A stretch of 64,000 nt of DNA from Allosphingosinicella sp. (GTDB taxonomy: Bacteria; Pseudomonadota; Alphaproteobacteria; Sphingomonadales; Sphingomonadaceae): assembly GCA_035644835.1 (NCBI GenBank), contig DASQNR010000014.1, positions 5,222 to 69,221 of the forward strand, in the 5' to 3' direction. Position numbers and translations under genes: made by a program. Numbering within the stretch: the first letter of the stretch is position 1; every line of letters starts with the position of its first letter. Below the pieces are notes generated by a model. That model saw only the letters and a program-made list of their open reading frames with translations, was not told where the DNA came from and made no database searches. This document shows, one piece after another, positions 36,112 to 58,683 of this stretch.

Positions 36112-36888
36112 TTGCAAAATTTGGAACAGTCCGTGACGCTCTCCCAAGACGCCGCAACGCGCATGTTGCCCGCAGCCCTTCCTGCCGCCCGCCGCCCAAG
36201 GCGGATTGGGTCGCTGATTGCGGCGATCGCGGCGATTGGCGCCCTTGGCGCCTGCGCTGGGTCGCGCGGCGGCAACATCCCTTATGACGTCCAGGAGTTC
36301 GGCGCGCCGGACTCGCCCGCCGTCGCGGCGCTGGAGCCAGGTTACAAGATCGCGCCGCTCGACACGCTGCGAGTCAGCGTTTTCCAGGTGGCCGATCTTT
36401 CCGGCGAGTTCGAGGTCGATCTTGCCGGCTATATCGGCTTGCCGCTGCTCGGCAGCGTCCGCGCGGTGGGCATGACGACCGATGAACTCGACGCCGAGGT
36501 GACGAAGCTGCTCAGCGCCAAATACCTCCGGTCTCCGGACGTAAATGTAGGCATCAAGTCATCCAGCACCCGGGTTATCACGGTCGACGGCGCGGTGGCG
36601 TCGCCGGGCGTGTTCCCGGTCAACAGCAAGATCACGCTCCTTCAAGTGGTTGCAATGGCCAAGGGCACCACGGCGGATGCGAATCCGCGGCGAGTCGCTA
36701 TTTTCCGGCAGATCGAGGGGCAGCGAATGGCGGCCGCTTTCGATCTGACCGACATCCGCCGCGGCGCGGCCGAGGACCCGCGCGTGTATAGCGGCGACAT
36801 CGTCGTGGTCGATGGCTCCAAGGTCCGTGCCGTTCAGCGCGAGATACTGACAGCGCTTCCCATTCTTGGTATGTTCCGTCCGTTCTGA
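36112..36888 (+). CDS. wza: Polysaccharide export (OPX) protein
   Basis: YKIAPLDTLRVSVF, G.IGLPLLGSV, LGAC lipobox, SLBB-like region. Start uncertain (36112 or 36163). Confidence 0.9.
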   Translation: MQNLEQSVTLSQDAATRMLPAALPAARRPRRIGSLIAAIAAIGALGACAGSRGGNIPYDVQEFGAPDSPAVAALEPGYKIAPLDTLRVSVFQVADLSGEFEVDLAGYIGLPLLGSVRAVGMTTDELDAEVTKLLSAKYLRSPDVNVGIKSSSTRVITVDGAVASPGVFPVNSKITLLQVVAMAKGTTADANPRRVAIFRQIEGQRMAAAFDLTDIRRGAAEDPRVYSGDIVVVDGSKVRAVQREILTALPILGMFRPF

Positions 36889-36952: not shown

Positions 36953-39178
36953 ATGAGCAAGAACGACATCGAGCCCGCGGGCGCGCAGCCGATCTGGCCG
37001 CTGGCTCCCCAGTCGGGCGGTGACCTTGCCCTTCCGCAGCAATGGGGCCAGCAATCCTACGGCTCATCCTCGTCGATGGACCTCAACTTCGCGACGATTT
37101 GGCGCATCATTTCCGAATGGCGCTGGCTGATCCTGGGCGCCGTTGCCGTTGCCGTGGCCGGTGCGGTCGTGGTTACCTTTCTGACCACTCCGCTGTACCG
37201 CGCAACCGCCGCGCTTGAAATCAATCCACCCACCGTCAGGATCATGGACGACGCGAAGGGCATGCAGGGCGGCGGCGGCAACGACCGTGAATTCCTGGCA
37301 ACCCAATATGGCCTGCTCGCCAGCCGCAGCCTGGCGCAGCGCGTCGCCCAGGAGTTGAATCTTCCCGGCAATGAGACGTTCGTCGCGCCCGGCGGCGACC
37401 GAACCAGCCGGCTCAAGTCCGCGACCGGCAGGTTGATGGGCGGCTTCGAAGTCGTCCCGGTACCGGGCAGCCGCCTCGTGAAAATCTCCTACACGTCGGA
37501 GTCTCCCGCCTTGGCGGCTCAGATCACCAACAGCTTTGCCGACAATTTCATCAACGCCAATCTCGAGCGCCGTTACGAGGCATCCTCTTATGCGCGCCAG
37601 TTCCTTGAAAGGCAGATCGGCAAGGTCAAGGGCGAGCTCGAGAAGACGGAGCGGCAGCTTGTTGCTTATGCGCAGCAGCAGGGCCTGATCAGCACCACAA
37701 CCGGGAGCGACAAGGGCGGCGGCGGCGACACCAGCTCGCTGGAAGGCGCGACCCTGCTGCAGTTGAATTCGGCGCTCGCGCAGGCGCAGTCGCGCCGGAT
37801 CACCGCCGAGCAACGCTATCGCCAGGCAAGCCGGCTGAACGCCGCGACCGTTACGTCCAGCACGTCGGGGCTGCGTGCCCAAAAGGCAGGTCTTCAGGCC
37901 GAATATCAGGAAAAGCTCGCCACCTTCCGGCCCGAATATCCCGACATGGTCCGGCTGCGCACCCGCATCGACGCGCTGGATCAGGAAATCCGCCAGGAAG
38001 CCGGTACGGTGGCAGGCGGCCAGGGCACCACGCTTGCGGCGGAATATCAGGCGGCGATCGCCGAAGAGCGCAAGCTCCAGTCCGCAGTAACCCAGCTCAA
38101 GGGCTCGGTGCTGAACGAGCGCGGCAACCGTATCCAGTACAACATTCTGCAGCGCGAGGTGGATACCAACCGCTCACTCTACGATGCTCTGCTCCAGCGC
38201 TACAAAGAGATCGGAGTCGCCGGCGGCATCGGCACCAATTCCGTCTCGGTGGTGGACCGCGCGGAGCCGCCGGGGGCACCCTACAAGCCCAATTTGATGC
38301 TCAACCTGCTGATCGGCCTGATCCTCGGCATGGTCGCGGGCATCGGTGCGGCGCTCGCGCTCGAGTTCCTCAACGACACGGTCAAGACTCCGGACGATGT
38401 TCGCGACAAGCTGCGGCTGCCGTCGCTCGGCGTCATTCCGAAGAAGAAGGGCGTGGAGGCGGTCTCGGAAGAGCTCAAGGACCAGTCGTCGCCGGTTTCC
38501 GAAGCCTATTACTCGCTGCGGACATCGTTGCAGTTCACCACCGACACCGGGGCGCCCAAGAGCCTGCTCGTCACCAGCACCCGGGCCGCGGAAGGCAAGT
38601 CCAGTACCACGCTGGCGCTGGCGCAGAACTTTGCAAGGCTCGGAAATTCCGTGCTGCTGATCGACTCGGATCTGCGCAAGCCTGCCTTTGTCACGGGGCT
38701 CGAGCCGAACGAAGGGCTGTCGAAACTGCTCACGAATACGGACCCGCTGCAGGCTCATGTTCTCAAGACCCAGTTCGAGAACCTGTCGTTGCTGCCGTGC
38801 GGTCCGTTGCCGCCGAACCCGGCGGAGCTTCTTGCTTCACCGCGCCTCAAGGCCCTGATCGCGGAGGCGATGAACGCCTACGACATGGTCATCGTCGATG
38901 GTCCGCCGGTTCTTGGCTTGGCCGATGCGCCGTTGCTCGCCGGCGTGTGCCGCGCAACGCTGCTGGTCATCGAGAGCGGCAAAACCCGTACCCGCGCGGC
39001 AATCGATTCCACCAACCGGCTCAAGGCGTCGGGCGCGAACATCGTCGGCGCCGTGCTGACCAAGTTCCGTCACCAGGCGCACGGCTATGGCTACGGCTAT
39101 GGTTACGAGCCTTACCGCTATGGCGGCGTCGGCAACCGCGAGCGCGAAATCAAGCTCATTGCCCAGCGTGAGGCGTAA
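36953..39178 (+). CDS. wzc: Polysaccharide co-polymerase / tyrosine autokinase
   Basis: Two TM segments, coiled coil, Walker A (AEGKSST), IDSDLRKP, IVDGPP, Tyr-rich tail GYGYGYGYEPYRY. Confidence 0.94.
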   Translation: MSKNDIEPAGAQPIWPLAPQSGGDLALPQQWGQQSYGSSSSMDLNFATIWRIISEWRWLILGAVAVAVAGAVVVTFLTTPLYRATAALEINPPTVRIMDDAKGMQGGGGNDREFLATQYGLLASRSLAQRVAQELNLPGNETFVAPGGDRTSRLKSATGRLMGGFEVVPVPGSRLVKISYTSESPALAAQITNSFADNFINANLERRYEASSYARQFLERQIGKVKGELEKTERQLVAYAQQQGLISTTTGSDKGGGGDTSSLEGATLLQLNSALAQAQSRRITAEQRYRQASRLNAATVTSSTSGLRAQKAGLQAEYQEKLATFRPEYPDMVRLRTRIDALDQEIRQEAGTVAGGQGTTLAAEYQAAIAEERKLQSAVTQLKGSVLNERGNRIQYNILQREVDTNRSLYDALLQRYKEIGVAGGIGTNSVSVVDRAEPPGAPYKPNLMLNLLIGLILGMVAGIGAALALEFLNDTVKTPDDVRDKLRLPSLGVIPKKKGVEAVSEELKDQSSPVSEAYYSLRTSLQFTTDTGAPKSLLVTSTRAAEGKSSTTLALAQNFARLGNSVLLIDSDLRKPAFVTGLEPNEGLSKLLTNTDPLQAHVLKTQFENLSLLPCGPLPPNPAELLASPRLKALIAEAMNAYDMVIVDGPPVLGLADAPLLAGVCRATLLVIESGKTRTRAAIDSTNRLKASGANIVGAVLTKFRHQAHGYGYGYGYEPYRYGGVGNREREIKLIAQREA

Positions 39179-40406
39179 GCGCACCCGACGCGAGCGAGAA
39201 AAGATAGGAGGGCCGCGGCTTGCGGCCCTCCTGCTCACCGTGCCTGTTGGTGCCTTTCTCGCCTGGCAGGTCGGCAAGGCCGGCGCGGCACAGGCATGGG
39301 GCGGGCGCAACCCGCCCGCGGCGGCGCAAATCGCCCCCACCCATCCATCGACCCGGATCGGAATGGCGATGCTGGAGTTCAGGCTCCGCAACGGCCATGT
39401 CACGCCCCAAGCGCGTGCCGAGGCGCTGGCGGCCTTGGGCGATCACCCAATCGCCGAGGAACCGTTCCTGCTCGAAGGCGTGATGGCGCTGGCCAAAGGT
39501 GAAACCGCTCGAGGCGAAGCCCTGTTGGAAGAGGCAAAGCGCCGCAACCCGCGCAACCGCATGGCGCGGCTGCTGTTGCTCGACCGCTACTTGCGCACCG
39601 AGCGCCCGCGCGAAGCCGCGGCCGAACTCGGCATCCTTACCGTGCTGGTGCCCAGAACAAGTGAAGTGCTGATACCGCAGCTCGCCAAGATGGTTACGCA
39701 GCCCAGTACCGCAGGCACGCTCAAGGGCGCACTCAGTAACAATCCCGGCCTGCTCAACGCGGTGCTTTCCCGCCTTGCAGCGGACGGTGCCAGCGCCGAC
39801 ACGATCCTGGCCCTGGCTTCTTCGGGCGGACCGACCCCGCCCGGCGTCGACACGCAGTGGCAGGCGATGCTGGTCAACAAGCTCGCCAGGGAAGGCGAGG
39901 TCGACCGCGCGTATCGCCTTTGGCGCGAATTCGGCAAGCTTCCCGCGAGCGACGGCGCGATGGGGCTCTACGATCCCGGCTTCCGCGGCCTGCCCGGCTC
40001 GACGCCCTTCAACTGGGCGCTGACGAGTGGCGCCGAGGGCGTTGCCGAGCGGGCCAGCGGCGGCGCTTTGCAGGCAAGCTTCTACGGCCGGACCGATGCC
40101 GTGCTGGCGGAACAATTGCTGATGCTGCGCCCGGGCCGCTACCGTCTCCAGTTCGATGCCGAAGGCGATGCCAAAGGCGAGGACGGCAGGCTCGGCTGGA
40201 CCTTGAGTTGCCAAGGGAGCAACGCGTCGCTGGTACAGCTGCCGCTCTCCGGCATCACCTATGCGCCACGCAGGGTCGGCGCGAACTTCACCGTACCGGC
40301 GGGATGCCGTGCGCAATGGTTGCGACTTGCGGGCGGCGCTGCCGAATTCCCGAACGAGCAGTCCGTGACGATCCGCAACCTCAAACTGGCAAGGGAAGGC
40401 TCGTGA
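39168..40406 (+). CDS. Hypothetical membrane-anchored protein (helical-repeat region plus beta-sandwich C-terminus)
   Basis: GTG 39168 overlaps the wzc end; one TM; TPR-like helices; beta-rich tail (LRPGRYRLQF..FTVPAGC). Confidence 0.7.
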   Translation: MRRKRTRREREKIGGPRLAALLLTVPVGAFLAWQVGKAGAAQAWGGRNPPAAAQIAPTHPSTRIGMAMLEFRLRNGHVTPQARAEALAALGDHPIAEEPFLLEGVMALAKGETARGEALLEEAKRRNPRNRMARLLLLDRYLRTERPREAAAELGILTVLVPRTSEVLIPQLAKMVTQPSTAGTLKGALSNNPGLLNAVLSRLAADGASADTILALASSGGPTPPGVDTQWQAMLVNKLAREGEVDRAYRLWREFGKLPASDGAMGLYDPGFRGLPGSTPFNWALTSGAEGVAERASGGALQASFYGRTDAVLAEQLLMLRPGRYRLQFDAEGDAKGEDGRLGWTLSCQGSNASLVQLPLSGITYAPRRVGANFTVPAGCRAQWLRLAGGAAEFPNEQSVTIRNLKLAREGS

Positions 40407-41779
40407 TCCACGTCCTGCGGCTCGCCCTGGTGCCGGCCTACCTGGTTCTGTGCCTGGTGCTCGGCGGCGCCAGCGGCGGCGGCTATTGGGCCAATGTCGC
40501 GCTGCAGCTGTTGGCCATCCCGATCATCTTGTGGGCGGTGGTCGCCCGCCGCAGCGCCCCGATTTCGTCGTCGGCCAAGCAGGTCATGCTGCTTCTGGCT
40601 CTCGCCATCATGGTCGTGCTTGTCCAACTTGTTCCGCTGCCGCCGTCTATCTGGACCAGCCTCGGCGGCCGGGGGGAAATCGTTCGCGGCTTCGAGATGC
40701 TCGGGCAACCGCTGCCATGGATGCCCATCTCGCTGGCGCCGTACCGGACGATCGCCTCCGCACTGTGGATGCTGCCGGCACTCGCCATCTGGTTCGGCAT
40801 CGTCCGCTTGGGCGGCTACAAGTCCTCCTGGCTGGCGGTTGCCCTGATAGTCGTTACCGCGTGCGCCGTCGGCGTCGGCGCCTTGCAACTGGCCGGGGGT
40901 GAGAACTCGTCCCTGTACTTTTACCGGATCACCAACCGGGGTTCGGCGGTCGGCTTCTTTGCCAATTCGAACAACATGGCGGAACTGCTGGTGGTGGCGA
41001 TACCGTTCCTTGCCATGCTTTATCTGATGGCACGGCGCGGCGGCTCCCTGCAGAAATCATCGGCGCTGCTTTTGGTGCTGATCGGTGCGCTGAGCGTGCT
41101 GCTCGTCGGCATTGCGGTGAATGGCTCGCTGGCCGGCATCGGCCTTGCCGTTCCGGCCCTCGGCGCGGCAGCCTTGATGATTCTCTACCGGCGCAAGCGG
41201 CTGCCGGTCTGGGCGCCGGTGGCGGCGGCGTTGCTCCTGGCCGGCTCGGCCGCGCTGATGCTGAGCGCGCCTTTCCAGAACAACCTTACCAGCGAGCAGG
41301 CGCGCACCTCCCAGGACTCGCGCTACAGCTCCTTCGGCACATCCATTCAGGCGGCCAAGGACTACCTGCCGCTGGGATCGGGCATCGGCACATTCCCAGA
41401 GATCTATCCCCGCTACGAGAACCCGCAGGCGGTGACCCGCTGGTACATGAACCATGTCCACAACGATTATATCGAGGTGGCACTGGAGACGGGGCTGCCC
41501 GGCATGGCCTTGGTGGCCTTGTTCCTGCTGTGGTGGCTGCGCCGCGTGTTTCTGATCTGGCGGGCCGATGAGCCGGACCATGCCGCGCGCGCCGCGACCA
41601 TTGCCAGCGCCGTGATCCTGACTCACAGCTTTGTCGAGTTTCCGCTCCGCACCGCCGCAATCAGCGCCGTTTTCGCGATGTGCGTGGCGCTGATGGCAGA
41701 GCCGCGGCCGCGCGCCCGCCAAAAGACCCGGGATGATGACAAGCCCGCTGCCAAGGCCCGGCACCTTTCGGCCGATTAG
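40403..41779 (+). CDS. O-antigen ligase / Wzy_C family membrane protein
   Basis: GTGA overlap; about 12 TM segments; GFFANSN, GSGIGTF, HVHNDYIEVALETG. Confidence 0.88.
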   Translation: MIHVLRLALVPAYLVLCLVLGGASGGGYWANVALQLLAIPIILWAVVARRSAPISSSAKQVMLLLALAIMVVLVQLVPLPPSIWTSLGGRGEIVRGFEMLGQPLPWMPISLAPYRTIASALWMLPALAIWFGIVRLGGYKSSWLAVALIVVTACAVGVGALQLAGGENSSLYFYRITNRGSAVGFFANSNNMAELLVVAIPFLAMLYLMARRGGSLQKSSALLLVLIGALSVLLVGIAVNGSLAGIGLAVPALGAAALMILYRRKRLPVWAPVAAALLLAGSAALMLSAPFQNNLTSEQARTSQDSRYSSFGTSIQAAKDYLPLGSGIGTFPEIYPRYENPQAVTRWYMNHVHNDYIEVALETGLPGMALVALFLLWWLRRVFLIWRADEPDHAARAATIASAVILTHSFVEFPLRTAAISAVFAMCVALMAEPRPRARQKTRDDDKPAAKARHLSAD

Positions 41780-43094: not shown

Positions 43095-44180
43095 TTGCTA
43101 CCTTATTGGCTTCTTTTCTCGATCTTCGCCGCCGGGTCGCTGAATTTTCAGCGCAAGCAGGCCGGTGGCGCCAATTCGGCACCGATCCTCGCGGTGGCCG
43201 GCCTGTTCGTTGCGCTCATGATCGGGCTGCGCTTCGAAGTAGGCGGCGATTGGGCCAACTACGAAGACATCCTGATCGTCACCGGGTACACGAGCTTTGG
43301 TGCGGTGTTGCGCGAAAGCGACCCCGGCTATGGCGTCTTGAACTGGACCGCCGCCCGTCTCGGCTGGCAGATCTGGTTCGTTAATCTCATCTGCGGTGCC
43401 ATCTTCAGTTGGGGTCTGATCAAATTCGCCCGGCAGCAGCCCAATCCGTGGCTCGCGGTGTTGATCGCGGTCCCCTATCTCATCGTGGTCGTTGCAATGG
43501 GCTACACGCGCCAAGGGGTGGCGATCGGCTTCATTATGGCGGGGCTTGCAGGCTTGGAACGCAGCTCGCTGTTGCGCTTCGCCACCTATGTCGTCCTGGC
43601 CGCGACCTTTCACAAATCCGCGGTGGTGGTGCTTCCGCTGGTGGCGCTGGCCGCAACGCAGCGACGCATCATCATCGTGCCGGCTCTCCTAGGCACCGCT
43701 CTCCTTCTTTATTATTTGTTCCTCGACGCTGCGGTCGACAAGCTGATGACCAATTATGTCGATGCCGAATACCAATCCGAAGGAGCGTTAGTACGGGTCG
43801 CCATGAACGTGCCCCCTGCAATCGTCTTTTTGCTGTTTTACAAGCGTTTCGAGCTTCGCGAGCAATCCAGAAAAATCTGGCGAAACCTGGCTCTTGCATC
43901 ATTGCTGGCGCTGCTCATGCTTGGCCTGACGACGGCGACCACCGCGGTGGACCGGATCGCGTTGTACCTCATCCCCCTCCAGATCTTCGTCCTATCGCGG
44001 ATGCCGCTAGCTTTTGGCAGCCGCGGCCAAGCCAACGGTCTGCTGATTGCATTCGTGATCGCATACTCTGCGGCGATTCAGCTAGTCTGGCTCAATTACG
44101 CTACTCACGCTTCGGAGTGGCTGCCGTATCAATTGTTTCCACTCGATCACAGTGCACCCCTGGTTCCGGTTGGTCGCTAG
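43095..44180 (+). CDS. EpsG-like polysaccharide polymerase (Wzy candidate)
   Basis: TTG start; GLRFEVGGDW..Y, DPGY, RQGVA, FHKSA; about 10 TM segments. Confidence 0.82.
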   Translation: MLPYWLLFSIFAAGSLNFQRKQAGGANSAPILAVAGLFVALMIGLRFEVGGDWANYEDILIVTGYTSFGAVLRESDPGYGVLNWTAARLGWQIWFVNLICGAIFSWGLIKFARQQPNPWLAVLIAVPYLIVVVAMGYTRQGVAIGFIMAGLAGLERSSLLRFATYVVLAATFHKSAVVVLPLVALAATQRRIIIVPALLGTALLLYYLFLDAAVDKLMTNYVDAEYQSEGALVRVAMNVPPAIVFLLFYKRFELREQSRKIWRNLALASLLALLMLGLTTATTAVDRIALYLIPLQIFVLSRMPLAFGSRGQANGLLIAFVIAYSAAIQLVWLNYATHASEWLPYQLFPLDHSAPLVPVGR

Positions 44181-45541: not shown

Positions 45542-46759
45542 ATGCTTAACATCGTGGTCTTGAACGGCGGTCGGGGAGCCGCGTCGATCATTCCCGCCAT
45601 GCTCCGCCACCAGGGCCTGAACATCACCTCCATCGTCAACGCTTATGACGACGGAAAATCGACCGGCGAGATCCGTCGCTTCTTCGACATGCTGGGGCCG
45701 TCGGACATCCGCAAGGTGCAGGAACTGATGCTTCCGGAGGAGGACGCAAACCACGCGGCCAGCCAGGCGCTGTTCGCGTTTCGCTACCCGGATGGGACGG
45801 TGCCGCAGGGCGCGCTGGACGACATGAAGCGCTTCGCCGCGGGGCAGCCCGAGCTTGCCGGGATCGCGCTCCCGCCCGGCGCGCTGCGAAAGGCGATCGT
45901 GCGCTTTATCGCCGAGTTCGTCGGCGGCCTGGAAGTGATCGAAAAGGCGCGCGGGGAGCGCTTCAGCTTCTCCGACTGCTCGCTGATGAACTGCCTTTAC
46001 GCCGGCGCCTATCTGGCGTGCGAACGGGATATGGAGCTCACCACCAAGACCATCGACCGGCTGTTTCGGCTGCGCGGGACGGTGCTGCCCAACAGCGTCG
46101 AAAACAAGTGGCTGATGGCGGTTCGTGAAAATGGCGAGATCCTCCATTCCGAAGCGGAGATCGTCGAGCTGCGCTCCAACGTGCTGATCGATTCCGTCTA
46201 CCTGCTCGACCGCCCGCTCGACCGCGACCGTTTCGCCAACCTTTCGCCCGAGGAGCAGCGTTATTTCCTCAAGCGCCACCACGGTGCCGCCAACGCTTCG
46301 CCCGGCGTTCGGCTGGCCCTCGAACAGGCCGACATCATCGTGTATTCGGCCGGAACGCAGCACAGCTCGCTTTATCCCACCTACATGTCGCGCGGCGTCG
46401 CGGAGACGATTGCCGGCAATCGCGAAGCGCTGAAGGTGTTCGTCACCAATATCGGCGCGGATTACGAGACGCCGAGCTACCGCGCTTCCGATTATATAAA
46501 GGGCGCCTACAAATATCTGCGCCTCGCCGACCGCCGCCAATATGCCATGCCGGAGCTGTTCTCCCGCATCCTCATCAACAACGGCCGGCGCAAGGCGGAT
46601 GAGACCTATGTCGACTTCGACGAGGAGAATTTCGCCGATCTGCCGGTCCCGTACATGGTCGGCGATTTCGAATCGGAGACCGCACCGGGCAAACATGATG
46701 GCGCCCGGGTCGTTCACACCATCCTCGGCCTTTACGAAGAAGCGGCCGGCGCGACATGA
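45542..46759 (+). CDS. YvcK/GlmR-CofD-like (UPF0052) protein
   Basis: LNGGRG; VNAYDDGKSTG (cf. DDGGSSG); GPSDIRK; DIIVYSAGTQHSSLYP; KVFVTN. Confidence 0.78.
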   Translation: MLNIVVLNGGRGAASIIPAMLRHQGLNITSIVNAYDDGKSTGEIRRFFDMLGPSDIRKVQELMLPEEDANHAASQALFAFRYPDGTVPQGALDDMKRFAAGQPELAGIALPPGALRKAIVRFIAEFVGGLEVIEKARGERFSFSDCSLMNCLYAGAYLACERDMELTTKTIDRLFRLRGTVLPNSVENKWLMAVRENGEILHSEAEIVELRSNVLIDSVYLLDRPLDRDRFANLSPEEQRYFLKRHHGAANASPGVRLALEQADIIVYSAGTQHSSLYPTYMSRGVAETIAGNREALKVFVTNIGADYETPSYRASDYIKGAYKYLRLADRRQYAMPELFSRILINNGRRKADETYVDFDEENFADLPVPYMVGDFESETAPGKHDGARVVHTILGLYEEAAGAT

Positions 46760-47418
46760 GCGTGTCGCCACTGGCGGAACTGCTTCGAACCAAGCGACTG
46801 CTGATCTTCGACTTCGATGGTACGATTGTTGACAGCTCGCCCCTTCATGCCCGCGCATTCAACGAAGCCTTTGCGGGCGACGGAGTGACGGTGGACTACC
46901 CAAGCATCGCCGGCCTTACCACCGATACCGCCATCGACCAGGTGGCGCTCGGCGCCGGCCTCTCGCTCGACCCGGAGAAGCGGGCGTTGCTTATCGCCGA
47001 CAAGCGCGCCCGCGCGCTGCGGCTGATCGAGGCGGAGCTGGAGCCGATCGCCGGCAGCCTAGACTTCCTCAAGCGCGCGGGCACGCTGTTCCCGATGGCG
47101 CTCTGCACCTCCGGCTCGCGGCCCACCATCGAACGCGCGCTGGAGCGCGTCGGCCTGGTCGGTGCCTTTGACCCGGTGATCACCGCGGGCGATGTCCGCC
47201 AGGGCAAGCCGCACCCGGAAGGCTTCCTCAAGGCCGCCGCCCATCACGGCGTCGCCCCGGCCCAGGCGCTGGTATTCGAGGATGCGCCCAGCGGGCTCGC
47301 CGCGGCCAGCGCTGCCGGAATCGAGGCGGTGCATGTGGTGGAGCCGGGCGCCGCCAGGGAGGCGGGACAGGCGGACTGGCCGATGCTGAATGCGGCTTTG
47401 GCGGAACTGGCGCGATGA
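46756..47418 (+). CDS. HAD hydrolase (beta-PGM/Cby-like)
   Basis: FDFDGT, TSG, GKPHPEGF, FEDAPSG. Confidence 0.9.
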   Translation: MSVSPLAELLRTKRLLIFDFDGTIVDSSPLHARAFNEAFAGDGVTVDYPSIAGLTTDTAIDQVALGAGLSLDPEKRALLIADKRARALRLIEAELEPIAGSLDFLKRAGTLFPMALCTSGSRPTIERALERVGLVGAFDPVITAGDVRQGKPHPEGFLKAAAHHGVAPAQALVFEDAPSGLAAASAAGIEAVHVVEPGAAREAGQADWPMLNAALAELAR

Positions 47419-48317
47419 AGGTCCTTGCCGCCATCGTCACGTACAACCGTATGGTGCTGCTGGAGCGCTGCGTCGATCACGTCCGGGCGCAGAGCCGGGC
47501 TCCGGAGGGCCTCCTGGTCGTCAACAACAGCAGCCCCGACGCGACCGTCGAGATGCTGGAGCGCAAGGGCGTAGACTATGTCACCCAACCCAATGTGGGG
47601 TCGGCGGGCGGCTGGCGCCGCTGCATCGAGGAGGCGCTTGCCCGGGGTTACGATGCGGTCTGGCTGATGGACGACGACGGTTATCCCGCCCCCGAGGCGC
47701 TGGCTCACCTTGTGCAGAAGCTGGTGCCGGGTGTCTCCTGCGTGTCGTCGGTGGTGCTGTGCCAGGACGAACCGAACCGCTTCGTTTTCCCTTTTCCCGC
47801 GCTCGACAGGCAGAAAATGCCCGTGCTTTTCGCGCGCAAGCGCAAGATCCGGCATCTGGACGCTCTCAGGAAGGTCGCTACGGGCGACACCTATCCGTTC
47901 GCCCACCTGTTCAACGGCGCTCTCGTCTCCACCAAGGTTGCCGCTCGCATCGGCAATGTCGAACCCAATTTCTTCCTGATGGGCGACGAGGTCGATTATT
48001 TCATGCGGATGCGCGCGGAGGGCGCCGTCCTGTCGGATCTGCGTGCCCACCACCTCCACCCGGATGTGGGCTCACGCCCGCTCGACGAAGCGAAATTCTA
48101 TTATTTCATCAAGAACACCATCATCCTCAACCGCCGCTACTTCAACCGCCCGACCTTGCGCCACGTGCTTACGGTCGGCGTCGCGCTGGCACGCACCGCC
48201 CGTCGCAACTCGGTTCGGGAGGCGCTAAGCTATGTCGCCGGCCCGCGGGCGCCGCTGCTTTGGAAGGCTGTCAGCCGGGGGCTGCGCGGGCAGCTCGGCA
48301 AGGACCTCCATGGCTGA
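47415..48317 (+). CDS. Glycosyltransferase family 2
   Basis: IVTYNR, VNNSSPD, NVGSAGG, LMDDDG, GDEVDY. Confidence 0.9.
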   Translation: MKVLAAIVTYNRMVLLERCVDHVRAQSRAPEGLLVVNNSSPDATVEMLERKGVDYVTQPNVGSAGGWRRCIEEALARGYDAVWLMDDDGYPAPEALAHLVQKLVPGVSCVSSVVLCQDEPNRFVFPFPALDRQKMPVLFARKRKIRHLDALRKVATGDTYPFAHLFNGALVSTKVAARIGNVEPNFFLMGDEVDYFMRMRAEGAVLSDLRAHHLHPDVGSRPLDEAKFYYFIKNTIILNRRYFNRPTLRHVLTVGVALARTARRNSVREALSYVAGPRAPLLWKAVSRGLRGQLGKDLHG

Positions 48318-49068
48318 CATCAAGGTCCTGATTGCCGCAGCGGGGGCCGGTACCCGAGCGGGCCTTCCTTACCCGAAGACGCTTCATCCAGTGCTTGGTG
48401 AGCCGATCCTCGTCCGGCTGATGGACACGCTGCGCCCCGTCGACCCGCGACCGACGCTGATCGTCAGCCCCGCGGGCGGGGAACCGATCGCGTCCGCGCT
48501 CGACGCGCGGGGCCTCCTTGCGGACCTGGTGGAACAGGCCGAGCCGAGCGGCATGGGCGATGCGATCCTGTGCTTTCGCGATGCTCCCGCAGCCGTGAAC
48601 ACCGAGCATCTGCTGGTGGTCTGGGGAGATATTCCGCTTCTGCAGCCACAAACGGTGGAGGCGGTCTGCCAAGCCCATATCGACCACGGCAACGACTTCA
48701 CCTTTGCCACGCGCCATGTCGAAAGGGCTTATACCATCGTCGAGCGTGCACCGGATGGCCGGGTTACATCGCTGACCGAGACTCGCGAAGCCGGGCTGGA
48801 GCCGGGTCCGGGAGAGCGCGACATCGGGCTGTTCGTGCTGCGCGTCGAACCGGTGCTGTCGATCCTCGGCGAACGACTCCCCGGTGCCTTCGGCAAGTCC
48901 ACCGGCGAGCACGGCTTTTTGTATGTCGTGGGCCACCTGGCCGAGCGCGGATTGCGCGTGGAGGCCCTGCCGGTTGCAACCGAGCTGGACCTCGTCTCCT
49001 TGAACCGGCTTTCGGACCTCGCCGACCTTCCACCCCTTGGCAAATCCGGAAACCCGCCGCCTGTTTGA
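48310..49068 (+). CDS. Stand-alone nucleotidyltransferase (GlmU N-terminal/MobA-like fold)
   Basis: IAAAGAGTR..LPYPKTL, QAEPSGMGDA, WGDIPL; no acetyltransferase domain. Confidence 0.85.
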   Translation: MADIKVLIAAAGAGTRAGLPYPKTLHPVLGEPILVRLMDTLRPVDPRPTLIVSPAGGEPIASALDARGLLADLVEQAEPSGMGDAILCFRDAPAAVNTEHLLVVWGDIPLLQPQTVEAVCQAHIDHGNDFTFATRHVERAYTIVERAPDGRVTSLTETREAGLEPGPGERDIGLFVLRVEPVLSILGERLPGAFGKSTGEHGFLYVVGHLAERGLRVEALPVATELDLVSLNRLSDLADLPPLGKSGNPPPV

Positions 49069-49122: not shown

Positions 49123-50292
49123 GTGGCCACTTTCCTGCGCCCGGCGGCGCCGCCATCGGCTGACGAGGGATCATTGAACAGGCAATCGACGCCCGGCGCG
49201 AAGAGGCTGGCGCTGCTGCTTCCCGACATGCGGGGCGGCGGTGCCGAACGAGTCGCGCTGCGGCTGATCGAATTCTTTCTCGAAGCAGGCCACCAAGTCG
49301 ATCTCGTGCTGCTGGAGCGCAAGGGGGAGCTACTGCCGCTTGTTCCCGATGCAGTGCATATCGTCAGCCTGGACGCGCCTCGCATCCGGTCGGCGATACG
49401 GCCCCTGGTGCGCTACTTCAAAAGCCGCGAACCGCACGCCATTCAGATATCGATGTGGCCGCTCACGATCGCCGGCATCGTAGCGCAGCGGCTTGCCGGT
49501 GCGCGGGCGCGAGTCGTGGTCAGCGACCATATCGCCTTGTCCAAGCAATATGGCTCGCGCGCCGTCGGCTGGACGACGCGGATTGCGTATCCGCTGGCCG
49601 ACGCGCGGATACTTGTGTCGGCCAATGCCGCCGACGATCTCGCCCGAATCTCCGGACTGCCGCGGTCGTCGATCGAAGTGATCTACAATCCGGTCGAAAA
49701 GCCGGCGGCGGGCAGCGCTCCGATCGAGGATCTGGAGGCGCTTTGGGGAGGCGGGCCGCGCATCATCACCGTCGGCAGCTTCAAGGACCAGAAGAACCAT
49801 GCGATGCTGATCCGCAGCTTCGCGCGCCTGCTCCGGCGGAGGCCCGCCAAGCTGATGATCCTGGGCGATGGGCCGCTCCGCCCGGCGCTTGAAGCGCTGG
49901 CCCGGGCGGAAGGCGTTGCCGAACATGTGTCGATGCCCGGCTTCCGTACGGACCCTTGGCCTTATTACGCCTCCGCCGATCTGTTCGCGCTGTCATCCGA
50001 TTATGAAGGCTATCCCCTGGTGCTGATCGAGGCGCTCCGCAGCGGGCTTCCGGTGGTGAGCACCGATTGCGAGACCGGGCCGGGCGAGATCCTTGCCGAC
50101 GGCCGCTATGGCCGTCTCGTGCCCGTTGGCGACGATGCTGCATTCGCACAGGCGCTGGAGCAGGTTCTGAACCTGCCCAACGACCGCGAGCGGCTGATGC
50201 AGCGCGCGGAAGAGCTGTCCGGACCCGGCACCTCGCAGCGTTACCTGGAACTGATGCTGGGCGATCCCGCGCCGGACGAAGCCCGAGTCTAG
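49123..50292 (+). CDS. Glycosyltransferase family 4 (WabH-like)
   Basis: GGGAERV, KNHAMLI, SSDYEGYPLVLIEA, STDC..GPGE. Confidence 0.92.
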   Translation: MATFLRPAAPPSADEGSLNRQSTPGAKRLALLLPDMRGGGAERVALRLIEFFLEAGHQVDLVLLERKGELLPLVPDAVHIVSLDAPRIRSAIRPLVRYFKSREPHAIQISMWPLTIAGIVAQRLAGARARVVVSDHIALSKQYGSRAVGWTTRIAYPLADARILVSANAADDLARISGLPRSSIEVIYNPVEKPAAGSAPIEDLEALWGGGPRIITVGSFKDQKNHAMLIRSFARLLRRRPAKLMILGDGPLRPALEALARAEGVAEHVSMPGFRTDPWPYYASADLFALSSDYEGYPLVLIEALRSGLPVVSTDCETGPGEILADGRYGRLVPVGDDAAFAQALEQVLNLPNDRERLMQRAEELSGPGTSQRYLELMLGDPAPDEARV

Positions 50293-50360: not shown

Positions 50361-52349
50361 GTGTGTGGCATAGCCGGGTTCATTTCCGGAAAGACGGAGC
50401 CGGCCTCCATCCGGGCGATGACGGACGCCATCCCCCATCGCGGTCCGGACGATGAGGGAACCTGGCTCGATACGGAGGCGGGCGTGGCGCTGGGCCACCG
50501 GCGCCTGTCGATCGTCGACCTGTCGCCGCTCGGCCACCAGCCCATGGTTTCCAATGACGGCCGCTGGGTGACGGTCTACAATGGCGAAATCTACAACCAT
50601 GCCGCCTTGCGCGCCGAGCTTGACGGGGACAGTCGCGGGCCGCGCAGCAACGGCATTGCGTGGCGCGGCCACAGCGACACGGAAACGCTGATCGAATGCA
50701 TCGCCGCATGGGGACTTGAAGCGACGATCCGCAAATGCGTCGGCATGTTCGCCTTCGCGCTGTGGGATCGGCGCGAAAGGTTGCTTCACCTGGTTCGCGA
50801 CCGATTCGGCGAGAAACCGCTTTATTATGGCTGGACCGGCGAAAGCTTCGCCTTTGGCTCAGAGCTCAAGTCGATCCGTGCGCTCGCGGGCTTCAACAAT
50901 CCAATCGACCGCCGCGCGCTGGGGCTGCTGTCGGCCCGCGCTTACATACCGGCGCCATTGTCGATCTACCGGCGCATCTACAAGCTCCAGCCGGGATGCA
51001 TCCTCACGGTTCGCGCCGATGCGTGGAAGACGCCGCTCGACGAGCCTCCCGAACCCGGCCGGGCTTCCGGCGGAATCAGGGTCGACTCATACTGGTCCTA
51101 TCGCGAGGTGGTGGCGCAGGGCCTGGCCGATCCGATCGAAGACGAGGAGGAGGCGCTGCGCCTGCTGGAGGAGGCGCTCGCCGGTGCGATCCAGGGGCAG
51201 GCGGTGGCCGATGTGCCGGTGGGAGCATTCCTGTCCGGCGGCATCGATTCCTCCACCATCGTCGCCCTCTACAACAAATATTCGCCGTCCAAGGTACGCA
51301 CCTTCTCGATGGGCTTCGAGGAAGAGGGCTTCAACGAAGCCGAATATGCCAAGGATGTGGCCGCGCATTTCGGCACGGAGCACAATGAGCGTTATGTGCG
51401 GGTGAAGGAGGCGCAGGAGGTGATCCCGCTCCTGCCGTCCATGTATGACGAGCCGTTCGCCGATTCCTCCCAGATCCCCACCCATCTCGTCAGCCGTTTT
51501 GCCCGCGAGCAGGTTACGGTGGCGCTGTCGGGTGACGGCGGCGACGAACTGTTCGGCGGCTATAACCGTTATTTCGGCACCGCGCGGCTGTGGGGCCATT
51601 TCAAGCGCCTGCCCGGGCCGGTGCGGCGGACGGTTGGCCGCGGCATGGGCGCGGTTCCCGCCGACGGTTGGAACCGCCTCGCCCGCGCCCTTCCCGGGGG
51701 GAAGCAGCCGCCGCATTTCGGCACAAAGGTGCGCAAGGCCTTCCGCACCATGGCCGCCGCGAACACGCTGGACGATGTGTTCACCACCTTTCTCGACGAA
51801 TGGGCCGGCGAGCGCTCTCCCGCCTTGAACGGCGGCGGCGATCCACGCGCGTGCGCGTTCGACACCGATGCCGGAGCCGCGGCGCCCGACGCGGTGCGGA
51901 TGATGTATTGCGACGCCGTTTCGTACCTGCCGGACGACATCCTGTGCAAAGTCGATCGGGCCGCGATGGCGGTCAGCCTCGAGACTCGGGTGCCGTTTCT
52001 CGACCACCGCGTGGCGGCCGTCGCGGCGCGCATCCCCGTGGAAATGAAGATACGCGGCGGGTCCGGCAAGCACATCCTGCGCCGCCTGCTCTACCGCGAA
52101 GCGCCGCGCGCCCTGTTTGAACGGCCCAAGGCCGGGTTCGGCGTGCCGGTCGGCGAGTGGATCCGCGGCCCGCTGCGGCCATGGGCCGAGGACCTGCTCG
52201 ATCCGGCCAGGATGCGGGCCGAGGGCAATTTCGATCCCGACATCGTTCAAAGCCGCTGGCGCCGCCATCTGGCCGGCGAGAGCGGCTCCACCCCCGCAAT
52301 CTGGACCATCTTGATGTTCCAGGCCTGGCTGCGGGAAACGGCTGCCTGA
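50361..52349 (+). CDS. asnB: Glutamine-dependent amidotransferase, asparagine synthase family
   Basis: N-terminal MCGIAG, HRGPD, NGEIYN, RDRFGEKPL, LSGGIDSS, SGDGGDELFGGY. Confidence 0.93.
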   Translation: MCGIAGFISGKTEPASIRAMTDAIPHRGPDDEGTWLDTEAGVALGHRRLSIVDLSPLGHQPMVSNDGRWVTVYNGEIYNHAALRAELDGDSRGPRSNGIAWRGHSDTETLIECIAAWGLEATIRKCVGMFAFALWDRRERLLHLVRDRFGEKPLYYGWTGESFAFGSELKSIRALAGFNNPIDRRALGLLSARAYIPAPLSIYRRIYKLQPGCILTVRADAWKTPLDEPPEPGRASGGIRVDSYWSYREVVAQGLADPIEDEEEALRLLEEALAGAIQGQAVADVPVGAFLSGGIDSSTIVALYNKYSPSKVRTFSMGFEEEGFNEAEYAKDVAAHFGTEHNERYVRVKEAQEVIPLLPSMYDEPFADSSQIPTHLVSRFAREQVTVALSGDGGDELFGGYNRYFGTARLWGHFKRLPGPVRRTVGRGMGAVPADGWNRLARALPGGKQPPHFGTKVRKAFRTMAAANTLDDVFTTFLDEWAGERSPALNGGGDPRACAFDTDAGAAAPDAVRMMYCDAVSYLPDDILCKVDRAAMAVSLETRVPFLDHRVAAVAARIPVEMKIRGGSGKHILRRLLYREAPRALFERPKAGFGVPVGEWIRGPLRPWAEDLLDPARMRAEGNFDPDIVQSRWRRHLAGESGSTPAIWTILMFQAWLRETAA

Positions 52350-57216: not shown

Positions 57217-58683
57217 ATGACTGTAGAAAAGGCCGCGCGGGCGGGTGCGTGGAGCGCGCTCGACATCCTGCTGCGTCAAGGCGTCCAGTTCGTCGTCACG
57301 GTCATCCTTGCCCGGTTGCTTACGCCCGAGGATTTCGGGCTGATCGCGCTGCTCGCCTTCTTCACCAGCCTTTCGATCACCTTTGTGCAGGGGGGCCTGT
57401 CGATGGCCCTGGTGCAGCGCCAGGATACCTCCCACGAGGAGGAGAGCGCGGTTTTTTGGTGCAATCTCGCGGCAAGCATCGTCTTCGCCGCCATCCTGGT
57501 GGTCATCGCGCCCGTTGTGGCGCCTTTCTACGGGGAGCCTTTGCTGCAGCCGTTGATGTTCGTAGCGGCCGCACAGGTGGTTCTTTCGGCTCTGGGAGCG
57601 GTGCAGACCGCGCTTTTGACCAGAACGCTGCGCTTCGATCAGCTCACCAAGACTGGAATTGTGTCGTCGCTCGCGTCCGGCGTGGCCGGCGTCGCAGCTG
57701 CGATGGCGGGCCTTGGCGTTTGGGCGTTGGCGATCCAGATGCTCGTGCTTGCGGCCGTGGGCAGCGCAATGCTTTGGTGGGTCAGCAACTGGCGGCCGGC
57801 AGTTCGCGTGCGGCTATCATCGGTTCGGCACCTCTTCCATTTTGGCGTCTTCGTCAGCCTCTCAAGCGTCCTGGAGGTTCTTTATCAAAATGGCTTCGCG
57901 CTCATTATCGGTAAATTCTACGGCGTCCGAGATCTCGGCCTGTTCAATCGCGCCGCGAATCTGCAGGGGCTTCCCACCAGCATCATTTCATCCATAATCA
58001 GCCGGATCGCTTTGCCATTGTTCGCGGCCCGTGCCGACGATCCTGAGGCGCTGCGCCGTGGCTTCAGGATGTCACTGAGCTTGGGGATGATCTTGAGCAT
58101 GCCGGTGATGGCTGGATTGGCGTTGCTTCCCGATTTGATCATCTTGACTCTGTTCGGTGCGCAATGGCTGCCGGCTGCCCCGCTCGTCACGATCATCGCT
58201 ATCGGCGGCATGCTTATGCCGATGCACGCGATCAACATCCAGATCGTACTGGCGCAAGGGAAATCCAGGCTCTTCCTCAAACTGGAAATTCAGAAGAAGG
58301 TGGCCGGGGTGGCATGCCTGGCAGTCGGCAGCTTTTTCGGTATCGAGGGGATCGCATATGGAGTGTTGGTCTTCAGCCCCATCGCCCTATTCCTGAACGC
58401 ACGGCCGAACCGCGAATCGATTAACTACGGCGCGCTGCAGCAAATCTGGGGCCTTTGGGATGTCATAGCAGCGACGGTGTTCATGAGCTTGGGCGTCTAC
58501 CTGATACAAAGATGGATTGAATTCTCCCCCTTGGTAGAACTCGGACTGTTGAGCCTGAGCGGCGCAATCTTGTACCTCGGTTTCGGTTTCCTCCTGCGCC
58601 TCCAGAGTTTTGCAGACGCACGCGAGATAGTGAAGAATCTGCTGCGGCGAGTACCCGCGGCAAGGCTTTCGGGAGAGGCCTGA
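57217..58683 (+). CDS. wzx: Polysaccharide flippase
   Basis: ILARLLTPEDFGL, IIGKFYG..LGLF, LFGAQW; about 12-14 TM segments. Confidence 0.92.
   Translation: MTVEKAARAGAWSALDILLRQGVQFVVTVILARLLTPEDFGLIALLAFFTSLSITFVQGGLSMALVQRQDTSHEEESAVFWCNLAASIVFAAILVVIAPVVAPFYGEPLLQPLMFVAAAQVVLSALGAVQTALLTRTLRFDQLTKTGIVSSLASGVAGVAAAMAGLGVWALAIQMLVLAAVGSAMLWWVSNWRPAVRVRLSSVRHLFHFGVFVSLSSVLEVLYQNGFALIIGKFYGVRDLGLFNRAANLQGLPTSIISSIISRIALPLFAARADDPEALRRGFRMSLSLGMILSMPVMAGLALLPDLIILTLFGAQWLPAAPLVTIIAIGGMLMPMHAINIQIVLAQGKSRLFLKLEIQKKVAGVACLAVGSFFGIEGIAYGVLVFSPIALFLNARPNRESINYGALQQIWGLWDVIAATVFMSLGVYLIQRWIEFSPLVELGLLSLSGAILYLGFGFLLRLQSFADAREIVKNLLRRVPAARLSGEA

Follow-up and report, generated by a model that had tools for sequence, protein, structure and literature searches.

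A YvcK/CofD-superfamily gene cassette of glycan loci that may make and install an unusual UDP-sugar

Proteins of the YvcK/GlmR type are widespread and matter for envelope homeostasis and for virulence in Firmicutes and Actinobacteria, and their biochemical role is debated, with a UDP-GlcNAc sensor, a GlmS activator and an accessory uridyltransferase all proposed. In the CofC/CofD (FbiD/FbiA) step of coenzyme F420 biosynthesis, a PF01933 protein has a MobA-like nucleotidyltransferase (NT) as its partner, and the two are sometimes fused. The only published locus that we found to combine a CofD-family gene and an NT with a glycan GT2 glycosyltransferase is an island of Mycoplasma fermentans, which holds a GT2 synthase, a CofD-family gene reported as split into two pseudogenes and an NDP-nucleotidyltransferase (PMC11658790). 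Here we describe a cassette in a 64,000-nucleotide stretch of Allosphingosinicella sp. DNA (assembly GCA_035644835.1, contig DASQNR010000014.1), hereafter the window, in which a PF01933 gene, referred to as CofD-like or YvcK-like, is chained at 45542-49068 to genes for a HAD hydrolase, a GT2 and a GlmU-N-like NT. We regard the cassette as a new functional variant, both of the YvcK/CofD superfamily and of the sugar-supply modules found in glycan loci. The reading that we favour, to which we would give about an even chance, is that it represents a horizontally acquired 'make-and-install' unit for the dedicated synthesis of an unusual UDP-sugar donor and its transfer.

The four genes lie on the + strand in the order PF01933, HAD, GT2 and NT. 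As read from the sequence, the first two junctions (46756 and 47415) are overlaps of the form ATGA; the GT2 and NT genes share the overlap ATGGCTGA at 48310-48317. Open reading frames (ORFs), overlaps and domain calls agree with the families and junctions given in a first-pass annotation of this DNA, which had also placed the unit between glycosyltransferase genes; a GT4 gene indeed lies on either side (Table 1).

A scan of one genome per species yielded 97 loci that encode a relative of the PF01933 protein, and the 80 best of them were retained. Synteny was counted in 54 loci with at least 43% identity to this protein and enough downstream DNA. All 54 carry the NT downstream of the CofD-like gene; a HAD is present there in 51 and a GT2 in 50. 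The order CofD-like, HAD, GT2, NT on the same strand was retained in 48 of the 54, so that the co-occurrence of neighbours proposed as a check in the first-pass annotation was borne out. These 48 loci span six or more phyla, with hosts among Alpha-, Beta- and Gammaproteobacteria, Geomonas, Prochlorococcus/Synechococcus, SAR86, Pelagibacterales and Bacteroidota; the wider set of related loci adds Clostridia and archaea. This gene arrangement far exceeds chance. ORF clustering of the 80 related loci further brought out a GT4 of ~410 aa. Its orthologue cluster is represented in 53 loci, and in 42 of the 53 in which its position could be judged it lies directly 5' of the CofD-like gene. The unit therefore has five genes (GT4, CofD-like, HAD, GT2 and NT), and the four-gene module described earlier, although its genes are real, was one gene short.

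Gene fusions tie the parts together further. An exhaustive HMMER search for PF01933 relatives gave 2325 cluster representatives, and many of those at 30-35% identity are fusion proteins. The largest, of 1148 aa, unites HAD, NT, CofD-like and GT2 domains in one polypeptide; others join NT, CofD-like and GT2, CofD-like and GT2, NT and CofD-like, or CofD-like, a Cof-type HAD and NT. In some fusions this non-homologous Cof-type HAD takes the place of the cassette HAD, and a minimal operon of three genes (GT2, CofD-like::HAD and NT) also exists. Together with the synteny across phyla, the fusions, which we regard as strong Rosetta-stone evidence, indicate one self-contained pathway, as had been suggested from the window sequence. 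Long ORFs of the type seen at L034 4318-6873 were considered as GT4-CofD-like fusions and rejected as upstream run-ons in high-GC DNA.

Two kinds of insertion were observed within related cassettes. A class I SAM methyltransferase gene lies between CofD-like/HAD and GT2 in six loci (L014, L019, L054, L059, L062 and L001), and an extra GT2 gene is inserted in three (L017/L039/L043). Both hint at a product that carries O-methyl groups or is extended in certain lineages.

The PF01933 protein is a relative of YvcK by sequence, fold and tree, and the CofC/CofD analogy drawn in the first-pass annotation pointed to the wrong branch. A profile built from 46 homologues at 28-80% identity aligned over its full length to five solved YvcK-type structures in the PDB (E 1e-34 to 1e-27), and at E<0.01 this search of the PDB returned YvcK structures only, CofD not being reached. 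For the AF2 model (pLDDT 93), the best Foldseek matches were the YvcK structures 2hzb, 2o2z and 2ppv (TM 0.80-0.86, target-normalised), compared with ~0.6 for FbiA/CofD. With the YvcK/GlmR/CuvA/YbhK proteins (UPF0052, TIGR01826; 2HZB, 2O2Z, 2PPV, 2Q7X, 2P0Y), the protein shares the fold, the glycine-rich loop, the DD motif and the PxxD-I-R, YxASD and C-terminal (K/R)-H-D/N motifs. It differs from them in length (405 versus ~300-330 aa) and in context, being encoded in glycan or natural-product loci with an NT, a HAD and a transferase rather than in yvcJ-yvcK-whiA. An insert of ~60 residues (residues 86-145), modelled by AlphaFold as two helices, is absent from YvcK in the profile alignment. 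The score of the protein falls below the NCBIfam cut-offs both for YvcK (TIGR01826; 90.1 versus 196 bits, in two partial stretches) and for the CofD-like protein of the GAK system (TIGR04357; 88.9 versus 340 bits).

Among the 46 homologues, 36 residues are invariant, including G9-G10-x-G12, D36-D37, R45, R57-K58, R81, K298 and H385. In GlmR, D40, D41 and N198 are predicted to be catalytic and were mutated together (PMC10128056). D36-D37 is the equivalent of D40/D41; GlmR N198 is not conserved, its place being taken by T280 here. In a maximum-likelihood tree, every cassette-linked PF01933 protein, whether fused or not, fell into a single clade (SH-aLRT 87). Its sister comprises YbhK/YvcK and a further group of ~410-aa proteins, and the CofD-type proteins are the outgroup (SH-aLRT 100). 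That ~410-aa group (loci L110-L114, Pseudomonadota), which is separate from YbhK, from CofD and from the cassette clade, scored 81-109 bits against the cassette profile and was sister to YbhK in the tree.

The gene is the sole PF01933 gene of the 99%-complete, 3.1-Mb genome, and no homologue was found in 200 other genomes drawn evenly from the same order. The F420 ligase CofE (PF01996) was not found in this genome, and archaeal control genomes did match the same model. The protein thus belongs to neither the housekeeping YvcK nor the CofD type, and both readings were discarded. The first-pass annotation had seen no other F420 genes in the window, and the grouping with housekeeping YvcK/YbhK proteins lacking conserved neighbours, which it had named as evidence against a new system, was not what we observed: the clade is separate and its neighbours are conserved. 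The cassette is accessory and horizontally spread. A collection of plasmids searched with the PF01933 protein gave only distant YvcK matches.

Across these contexts the trio of NT, YvcK-like protein and HAD is constant, and the transferase that accompanies it varies. In the clade of the window protein the partner is a GlfT1-like GT2. The fused clade carries AglJ/ArnC-like lipid-carrier GT2s, once together with a PMT_2 GT-C, and in a clostridial trans-AT-like polyketide cluster a GT1 of the Rgt/macrolide type lies beside the CofD-like and HAD genes. The cassette clade also occurs with ABC transporters. The phylogeny asked for in the first-pass annotation thus recovers a distinct clade, but not one specific to wzx/wzy loci. 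Leloir GT1 and GT2 enzymes use NDP-sugars, and the product shared by a constant trio that feeds varying transferases should therefore be an NDP-sugar. The 36 residues that stay invariant in all contexts, down to 28% identity, fit one small soluble substrate shared by all members, not a range of different acceptors, and the substitution of a different HAD subfamily in fusions fits a generic phosphatase step. The varying transferase and the conserved active site hence weaken the earlier proposal of a phospho-substituent on the glycan in favour of an NDP-sugar donor.

The polyketide cluster (L087 8114-12287, on a Clostridium sp. KNHs205-like scaffold) encodes a CofD-like protein 40% identical to that of the window, paired with a HAD. 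The pair sits between an upstream 297-aa gene and the GT1 gene, near ECH and HMG-CoA-synthase beta-branching genes. The 297-aa product bears a weak GDPGP1_N mark and a PDB match to the HIT family at E 0.18, which gives it no firm identity. From this context, the module appears to serve natural-product glycosylation as well.

In the scheme that we favour, the YvcK-like enzyme would act on a sugar phosphate or UDP-sugar by phosphoryl or nucleotidyl transfer and give a phosphorylated intermediate, from which the HAD would strip the surplus phosphate; the NT would then yield the UDP-sugar, and the GlfT1-like GT2, probably with the adjacent GT4, would place the sugar into a lipid-linked repeat unit. 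Of the trio, the YvcK-like protein retains the predicted metal/phosphoryl-transfer DD motif, the HAD the catalytic set of phosphatases and the NT that of GlmU. The order of steps that we prefer (phosphotransferase, HAD phosphatase, NT, transferase) is modelled on the nucleotide-heptose pathway (HddA/HldE, GmhB, HddC/HldE, heptosyltransferase). That pathway, whose parts are likewise co-encoded in glycan loci, would have the same parts list if the YvcK-like protein supplied the anomeric phosphate. The likeness is one of logic only: the cassette has neither a GHMP/ribokinase-type kinase nor a GmhA isomerase, its HAD belongs to a subfamily different from GmhB, and we know of no PF01933 protein for which kinase activity has been shown.

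Several points weigh against this scheme. To our knowledge, there is no precedent for a YvcK/CofD-family enzyme acting upstream of an NT, and the reaction of CofD, one of the two known activities of the superfamily, is a transfer from an NDP-activated donor with release of NMP. The frequent NT-CofD-like fusions could equally fit an NT whose product is the substrate of the CofD-like protein, in the manner of CofC and CofD, and fusion of CofD-like to GT2 domains would also suit two enzymes that act in turn on a single acceptor. The HAD is absent from a few cassettes, and the nucleotide-forming partner in the polyketide cluster is only weakly identified (HIT/GDPGP1-like). Literature searches (CofD/YvcK with polysaccharide terms, and UDP-glucofuranose) found no paper that describes the cassette or characterises any member of the clade, the M. 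fermentans remark being the sole match. The other known activity of the superfamily is the reported uridyltransferase activity of GlmR (PMC10128056), and in M. fermentans PG18, where the CofD-family gene next to the glucofuranan synthase is reported to be reduced to two pseudogenes, the polymer is still made (PMC11658790).

The coupling of NT and CofD-like protein also allows a phosphodiester decoration along the lines of the first-pass annotation, which we hold to be a serious rival if somewhat unlikely. Here the NT would make UDP-X or NDP-X, a hydroxyl of the glycan would attack its beta-phosphate, and the CofD-like protein would leave X-phosphate (a sugar-1-phosphate or a phospho-acid) on the lipid-linked glycan with release of NMP; the HAD would supply or trim a phosphate, and the GT2 and GT4 would build the acceptor. 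NMP-releasing transfer has its precedent within the superfamily in CofD/FbiA, a two-step 'activate then transfer' like that of CofC/CofD is conceivable for the cassette, and activation, NMP-releasing transfer and dephosphorylation are the logic of di-myo-inositol-phosphate and phosphatidylglycerol synthesis. The NT-CofD-like fusions and the adjacency of the NT in all 54 loci mirror the coupling of CofC and CofD, many invariant basic residues (R45, R57, K58, R81 and K298) suit polyphosphate ligands, and IPCT is the best structural relative of the NT outside GlmU. However, the protein lies on the YvcK and not the CofD branch; CofD/FbiA differs in forming the outgroup of the tree, in its TM of only ~0.6, in the lack of CofE in the host and in its NT, that of the cassette being GlmU-like. 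Acceptors as unlike as a lipid-linked oligosaccharide, a polyprenyl-phosphate sugar and a polyketide would be required, yet the residues of the active site are invariant. The NT looks like an enzyme that uridylylates a sugar-1-phosphate, not like one that activates a phospho-acid, and the HAD, a monoesterase, would lack an obvious substrate after diester formation, save where an extra phosphate is present on the acceptor or on X. The polymer tied to the related M. fermentans island was moreover reported as an undecorated homopolymer (PMC11658790).

The NT profile aligned end to end with the pyrophosphorylase domain of GlmU (4aaw/1g95, 2.5e-35). Matches to GlmU ranged from 1e-23 to 1e-35, compared with only 1e-3 for CofC, and HddC-like proteins (6jq8, 5xhw) were also among its solved relatives. 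Only the N-terminal domain of GlmU is matched, the C-terminal left-handed beta-helix acetyltransferase domain being absent, and the protein scored 77-81 bits against GlmU equivalog cut-offs of 367-666. Invariant positions are R16, K23, Q76, G81, D107 and N232, with E157 almost so. In the alignment all of them fall on residues conserved in the uridyltransferase domain of S. pneumoniae GlmU, which are presumably equivalent to those of E. coli GlmU, and they cover the Arg/Lys of the LxxGxGTR...PK loop, the uracil-binding Gln and the Mg-binding Asp/Asn expected of a pyrophosphorylase domain. The putative sugar-pocket positions M82, W105 and D171 differ from GlmU, and in what we take to be the E. 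coli numbering these changes are T82 to M, Y103 to W and N169 to D. The NT is thus probably a uridylyltransferase for a sugar-1-phosphate other than that of GlcNAc. The earlier assignment as a GlmU-N-like enzyme making an NDP donor is supported by the retained catalytic residues, whereas activation of a phospho-acid by it is unlikely.

Because the NT is GlmU-like, the HAD and NT might instead boost a common donor (UDP-GlcNAc or UDP-Glc), with the YvcK-like protein acting as a GlmR-type accessory uridyltransferase or as a regulator or chaperone that binds a UDP-sugar; we consider this quite improbable. Conservation of the GlmR DD motif as D36-D37 speaks for such a helper, as do the YxASD and (K/R)-H motifs common to YvcK structures and the PF01933 protein. 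Peptidoglycan-building bacteria already make UDP-GlcNAc, however, and it is hard to see why the supply of a common donor should call for a fused, strictly co-inherited module that moves horizontally. Its own transferase always accompanies the cassette. A function other than that of YvcK is indicated by the 60-residue insert, by the position in a separate clade and by the score below the YvcK cut-off. GlmR N198 has no equivalent here, and the sugar-pocket positions of the NT depart from those of GlmU in the presumed E. coli numbering. A helper role would have a model in YvcK/GlmR, a UDP-GlcNAc-binding protein with reported uridyltransferase activity (PMC10128056, PMC7525490).

The catalytic set of the HAD (D19-x-D21, S119, K151 and E175-D176) was invariant in 27 homologues. 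Against solved relatives, its profile ranked the sugar-phosphate phosphatases TM_1254 (1e-36) and CbbY (6e-31) above the beta-phosphoglucomutase (beta-PGM) of L. lactis (1e-28), and its score lay below the beta-PGM equivalog cut-off (TIGR01990; 70.6 versus 189.4 bits). R49 and N118, the putative distal-phosphate residues of beta-PGM, are not conserved in an alignment with a beta-PGM sequence that serves as a lead only. The phosphatase half of the earlier 'phosphatase or mutase' assignment therefore stands and a true beta-PGM is unsupported, given the score below the cut-off and the higher rank of the phosphatases; judged by its relatives, the HAD is most likely a sugar-phosphate phosphatase.

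For the GT2, whose D86-D87-D88 motif is invariant, the top NCBIfam model was the galactofuranosyltransferase GlfT1 (NF050113; 2e-29, 102.8 bits against a cut-off of 330). The next model followed at 6e-9, some 20 orders of magnitude behind, and GlfT1 again ranked first for GT2 orthologues from cyanobacteria, Bacteroidota, Pelagibacterales and Geomonas. UDP-galactopyranose mutase (UGM, PF03275) is lacking in 16 of 25 cassette-bearing genomes, which weakens the idea that the GT2 simply uses UDP-Galf made by UGM. The host genome does have UGM, on another contig; its only canonical UGM domain (contig C17:42974-43564) lies in an open frame of 813 aa, and comparable UGM frames of 788-935 aa occur in five other cassette-bearing genomes. 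These long frames could be either a UGM fusion or an ORF run-on in high-GC DNA.

The most far-reaching reading, which we regard as rather unlikely, is that the cassette provides a flavin-independent (UGM-independent) route to a nucleotide hexofuranose, e.g. UDP-glucofuranose. The YvcK-like protein and the HAD would convert a hexose phosphate to a ring-locked furanosyl-1-phosphate by anomeric phosphoryl transfer and subsequent removal of the distal phosphate; the GlmU-like NT would uridylylate this product, and the GlfT1-like GT2 would install the furanose. A partial parallel exists in glycan phosphoribosyltransferase/phosphatase pairs (the gPRT-PRP ribofuranosyltransferases, and BtrL/BtrP in butirosin), in which a transferase and a HAD-type phosphatase that removes the distal phosphate install furanoses; these systems use PRPP directly, without an NT or a Leloir transferase, and their transferase folds are not known to be related to PF01933. 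The route is suggested by circumstantial points: the GlfT1-like GT2 across phyla, the 16 of 25 genomes without UGM, the phosphatase-like HAD and the M. fermentans island. The polymer of the last is a beta-(1,6)-glucofuranose homopolymer, for which its authors note that no donor pathway is known (PMC11658790). A hexofuranose polymer there has its counterpart in a furanosyltransferase-like GT2 here; the island differs in having a membrane synthase instead of a soluble GT2 and in that no HAD was reported, and it was likened to the cassette from its published description alone. If true, such a route would be a third, catalytic role for the YvcK/CofD superfamily and would explain the origin of bacterial glucofuranose.

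In the cassette clade, the function of a YvcK relative is constrained by its partners (an NT, a phosphatase and a glycosyltransferase), which are often fused to it, and this offers a route to the chemistry of the family. Its hosts include ecologically dominant bacteria (Prochlorococcus, SAR86, Pelagibacterales, Accumulibacter and sphingomonads), in which the cassette lies in surface-glycan islands, in addition to the clostridial polyketide cluster. The product is probably a common but unrecognised part of microbial surfaces and natural products, with relevance to phage and grazer recognition and to glycoengineering.

Table 1. Features of the cassette and of the surrounding polysaccharide locus, in window coordinates
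Feature	Position	Strand	Basis and remarks
GT4-family glycosyltransferase (GT-B, retaining-type), 413 aa	44294..45535	+	Pfam Glyco_trans_4_4, Glyco_transf_4, Glycos_transf_1; fifth cassette gene
YvcK/CofD-superfamily protein, 405 aa	45542..46759	+	PF01933 at 1.2e-30; presumed catalytic core of the cassette
HAD-IA hydrolase (beta-PGM/YqaB subfamily), 220 aa	46756..47418	+	PF00702/PF13419 at 1e-25 to 1e-27
GT2 glycosyltransferase (GT-A, inverting-type), distantly GlfT1-like, 300 aa	47415..48317	+	PF00535 at 1e-16
Stand-alone GlmU-N-type nucleotidyltransferase, 252 aa	48310..49068	+	PF12804 at 4e-18; GlmU models at 1e-23
EpsG-family (Wzy-like) polymerase	43095..44180	+	PF14897 at 1.7e-53; context, not core; near the cassette in 26 loci
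Second GT4 glycosyltransferase	49123..50292	+	Pfam Glycos_transf_1, Glyco_transf_4; context; orthologue cluster in 35 loci
AsnB-type glutamine amidotransferase	50361..52349	+	PF00733 at 1.9e-110; context; near the cassette in 33 loci
Wza	36112-36888		Surrounding polysaccharide locus
Wzc	36953-39178		Surrounding polysaccharide locus
Wzx	57217-58683		Surrounding polysaccharide locus

The window is high-GC sphingomonad DNA whose nearest protein homologues come from Allosphingosinicella, Sphingomonas and metagenome-assembled genomes of Alphaproteobacteria. The cassette lies in a Wzx/Wzy-type exopolysaccharide locus, which also holds a Wzy_C protein, GT4 genes and RmlA/RmlB. A phosphoglycosyl transferase of the Bac_transf family (WbaP/PglC-type) is encoded on the same contig (C14:80736-81293, - strand), ~11.5 kb beyond the end of the window, and is probably the initiating enzyme. 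The polysaccharide locus thus reaches beyond the window, and no phosphoglycosyl transferase is missing from it.

This gene bears on a further explanation, in which the CofD-like protein would move sugar-1-phosphate from a UDP-sugar to polyprenol or polyprenyl phosphate, and would thereby be either a soluble phosphoglycosyl transferase of a third class or a synthase of Und-P-sugar, and the GT2 would act on the lipid intermediate. Distant relatives that are fused to or lie beside lipid-carrier-type GT2s, once with a GT-C, are in keeping with such a role, the NMP-releasing type of reaction would match CofD chemistry, and no phosphoglycosyl transferase gene was found among the locus genes inside the window. 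The conventional Bac_transf gene weakens the case for the CofD-like protein as a missing initiator. The HAD would moreover be left unexplained, the polyketide/GT1 context does not fit, and the GT2 of the window is GlfT1-like, not DPM/ArnC-like. We therefore hold this explanation to be very improbable.

As for gene boundaries, the NT start at 48310 is preferred, the longer start at 48232 being without homologue support. The ATG start of the upstream GT4 gene agrees with homologue N-termini, and 6 nt separate its stop codon from the start of the CofD-like gene. A promoter and terminator scan over 41.5-54.6 kb gave no signal exceeding shuffled controls. AsnB is often encoded directly 3' of the NT gene in related loci. 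The G+C content is 0.59-0.67 in the polysaccharide locus (window 34000-64000), compared with 0.65-0.72 in 1-34000, and the lower value is consistent with horizontal acquisition of the locus. A 439-aa ORF without a Pfam hit at 39087-40406 (+) overlaps the start of the Wzy_C-domain frame (39857-41779).

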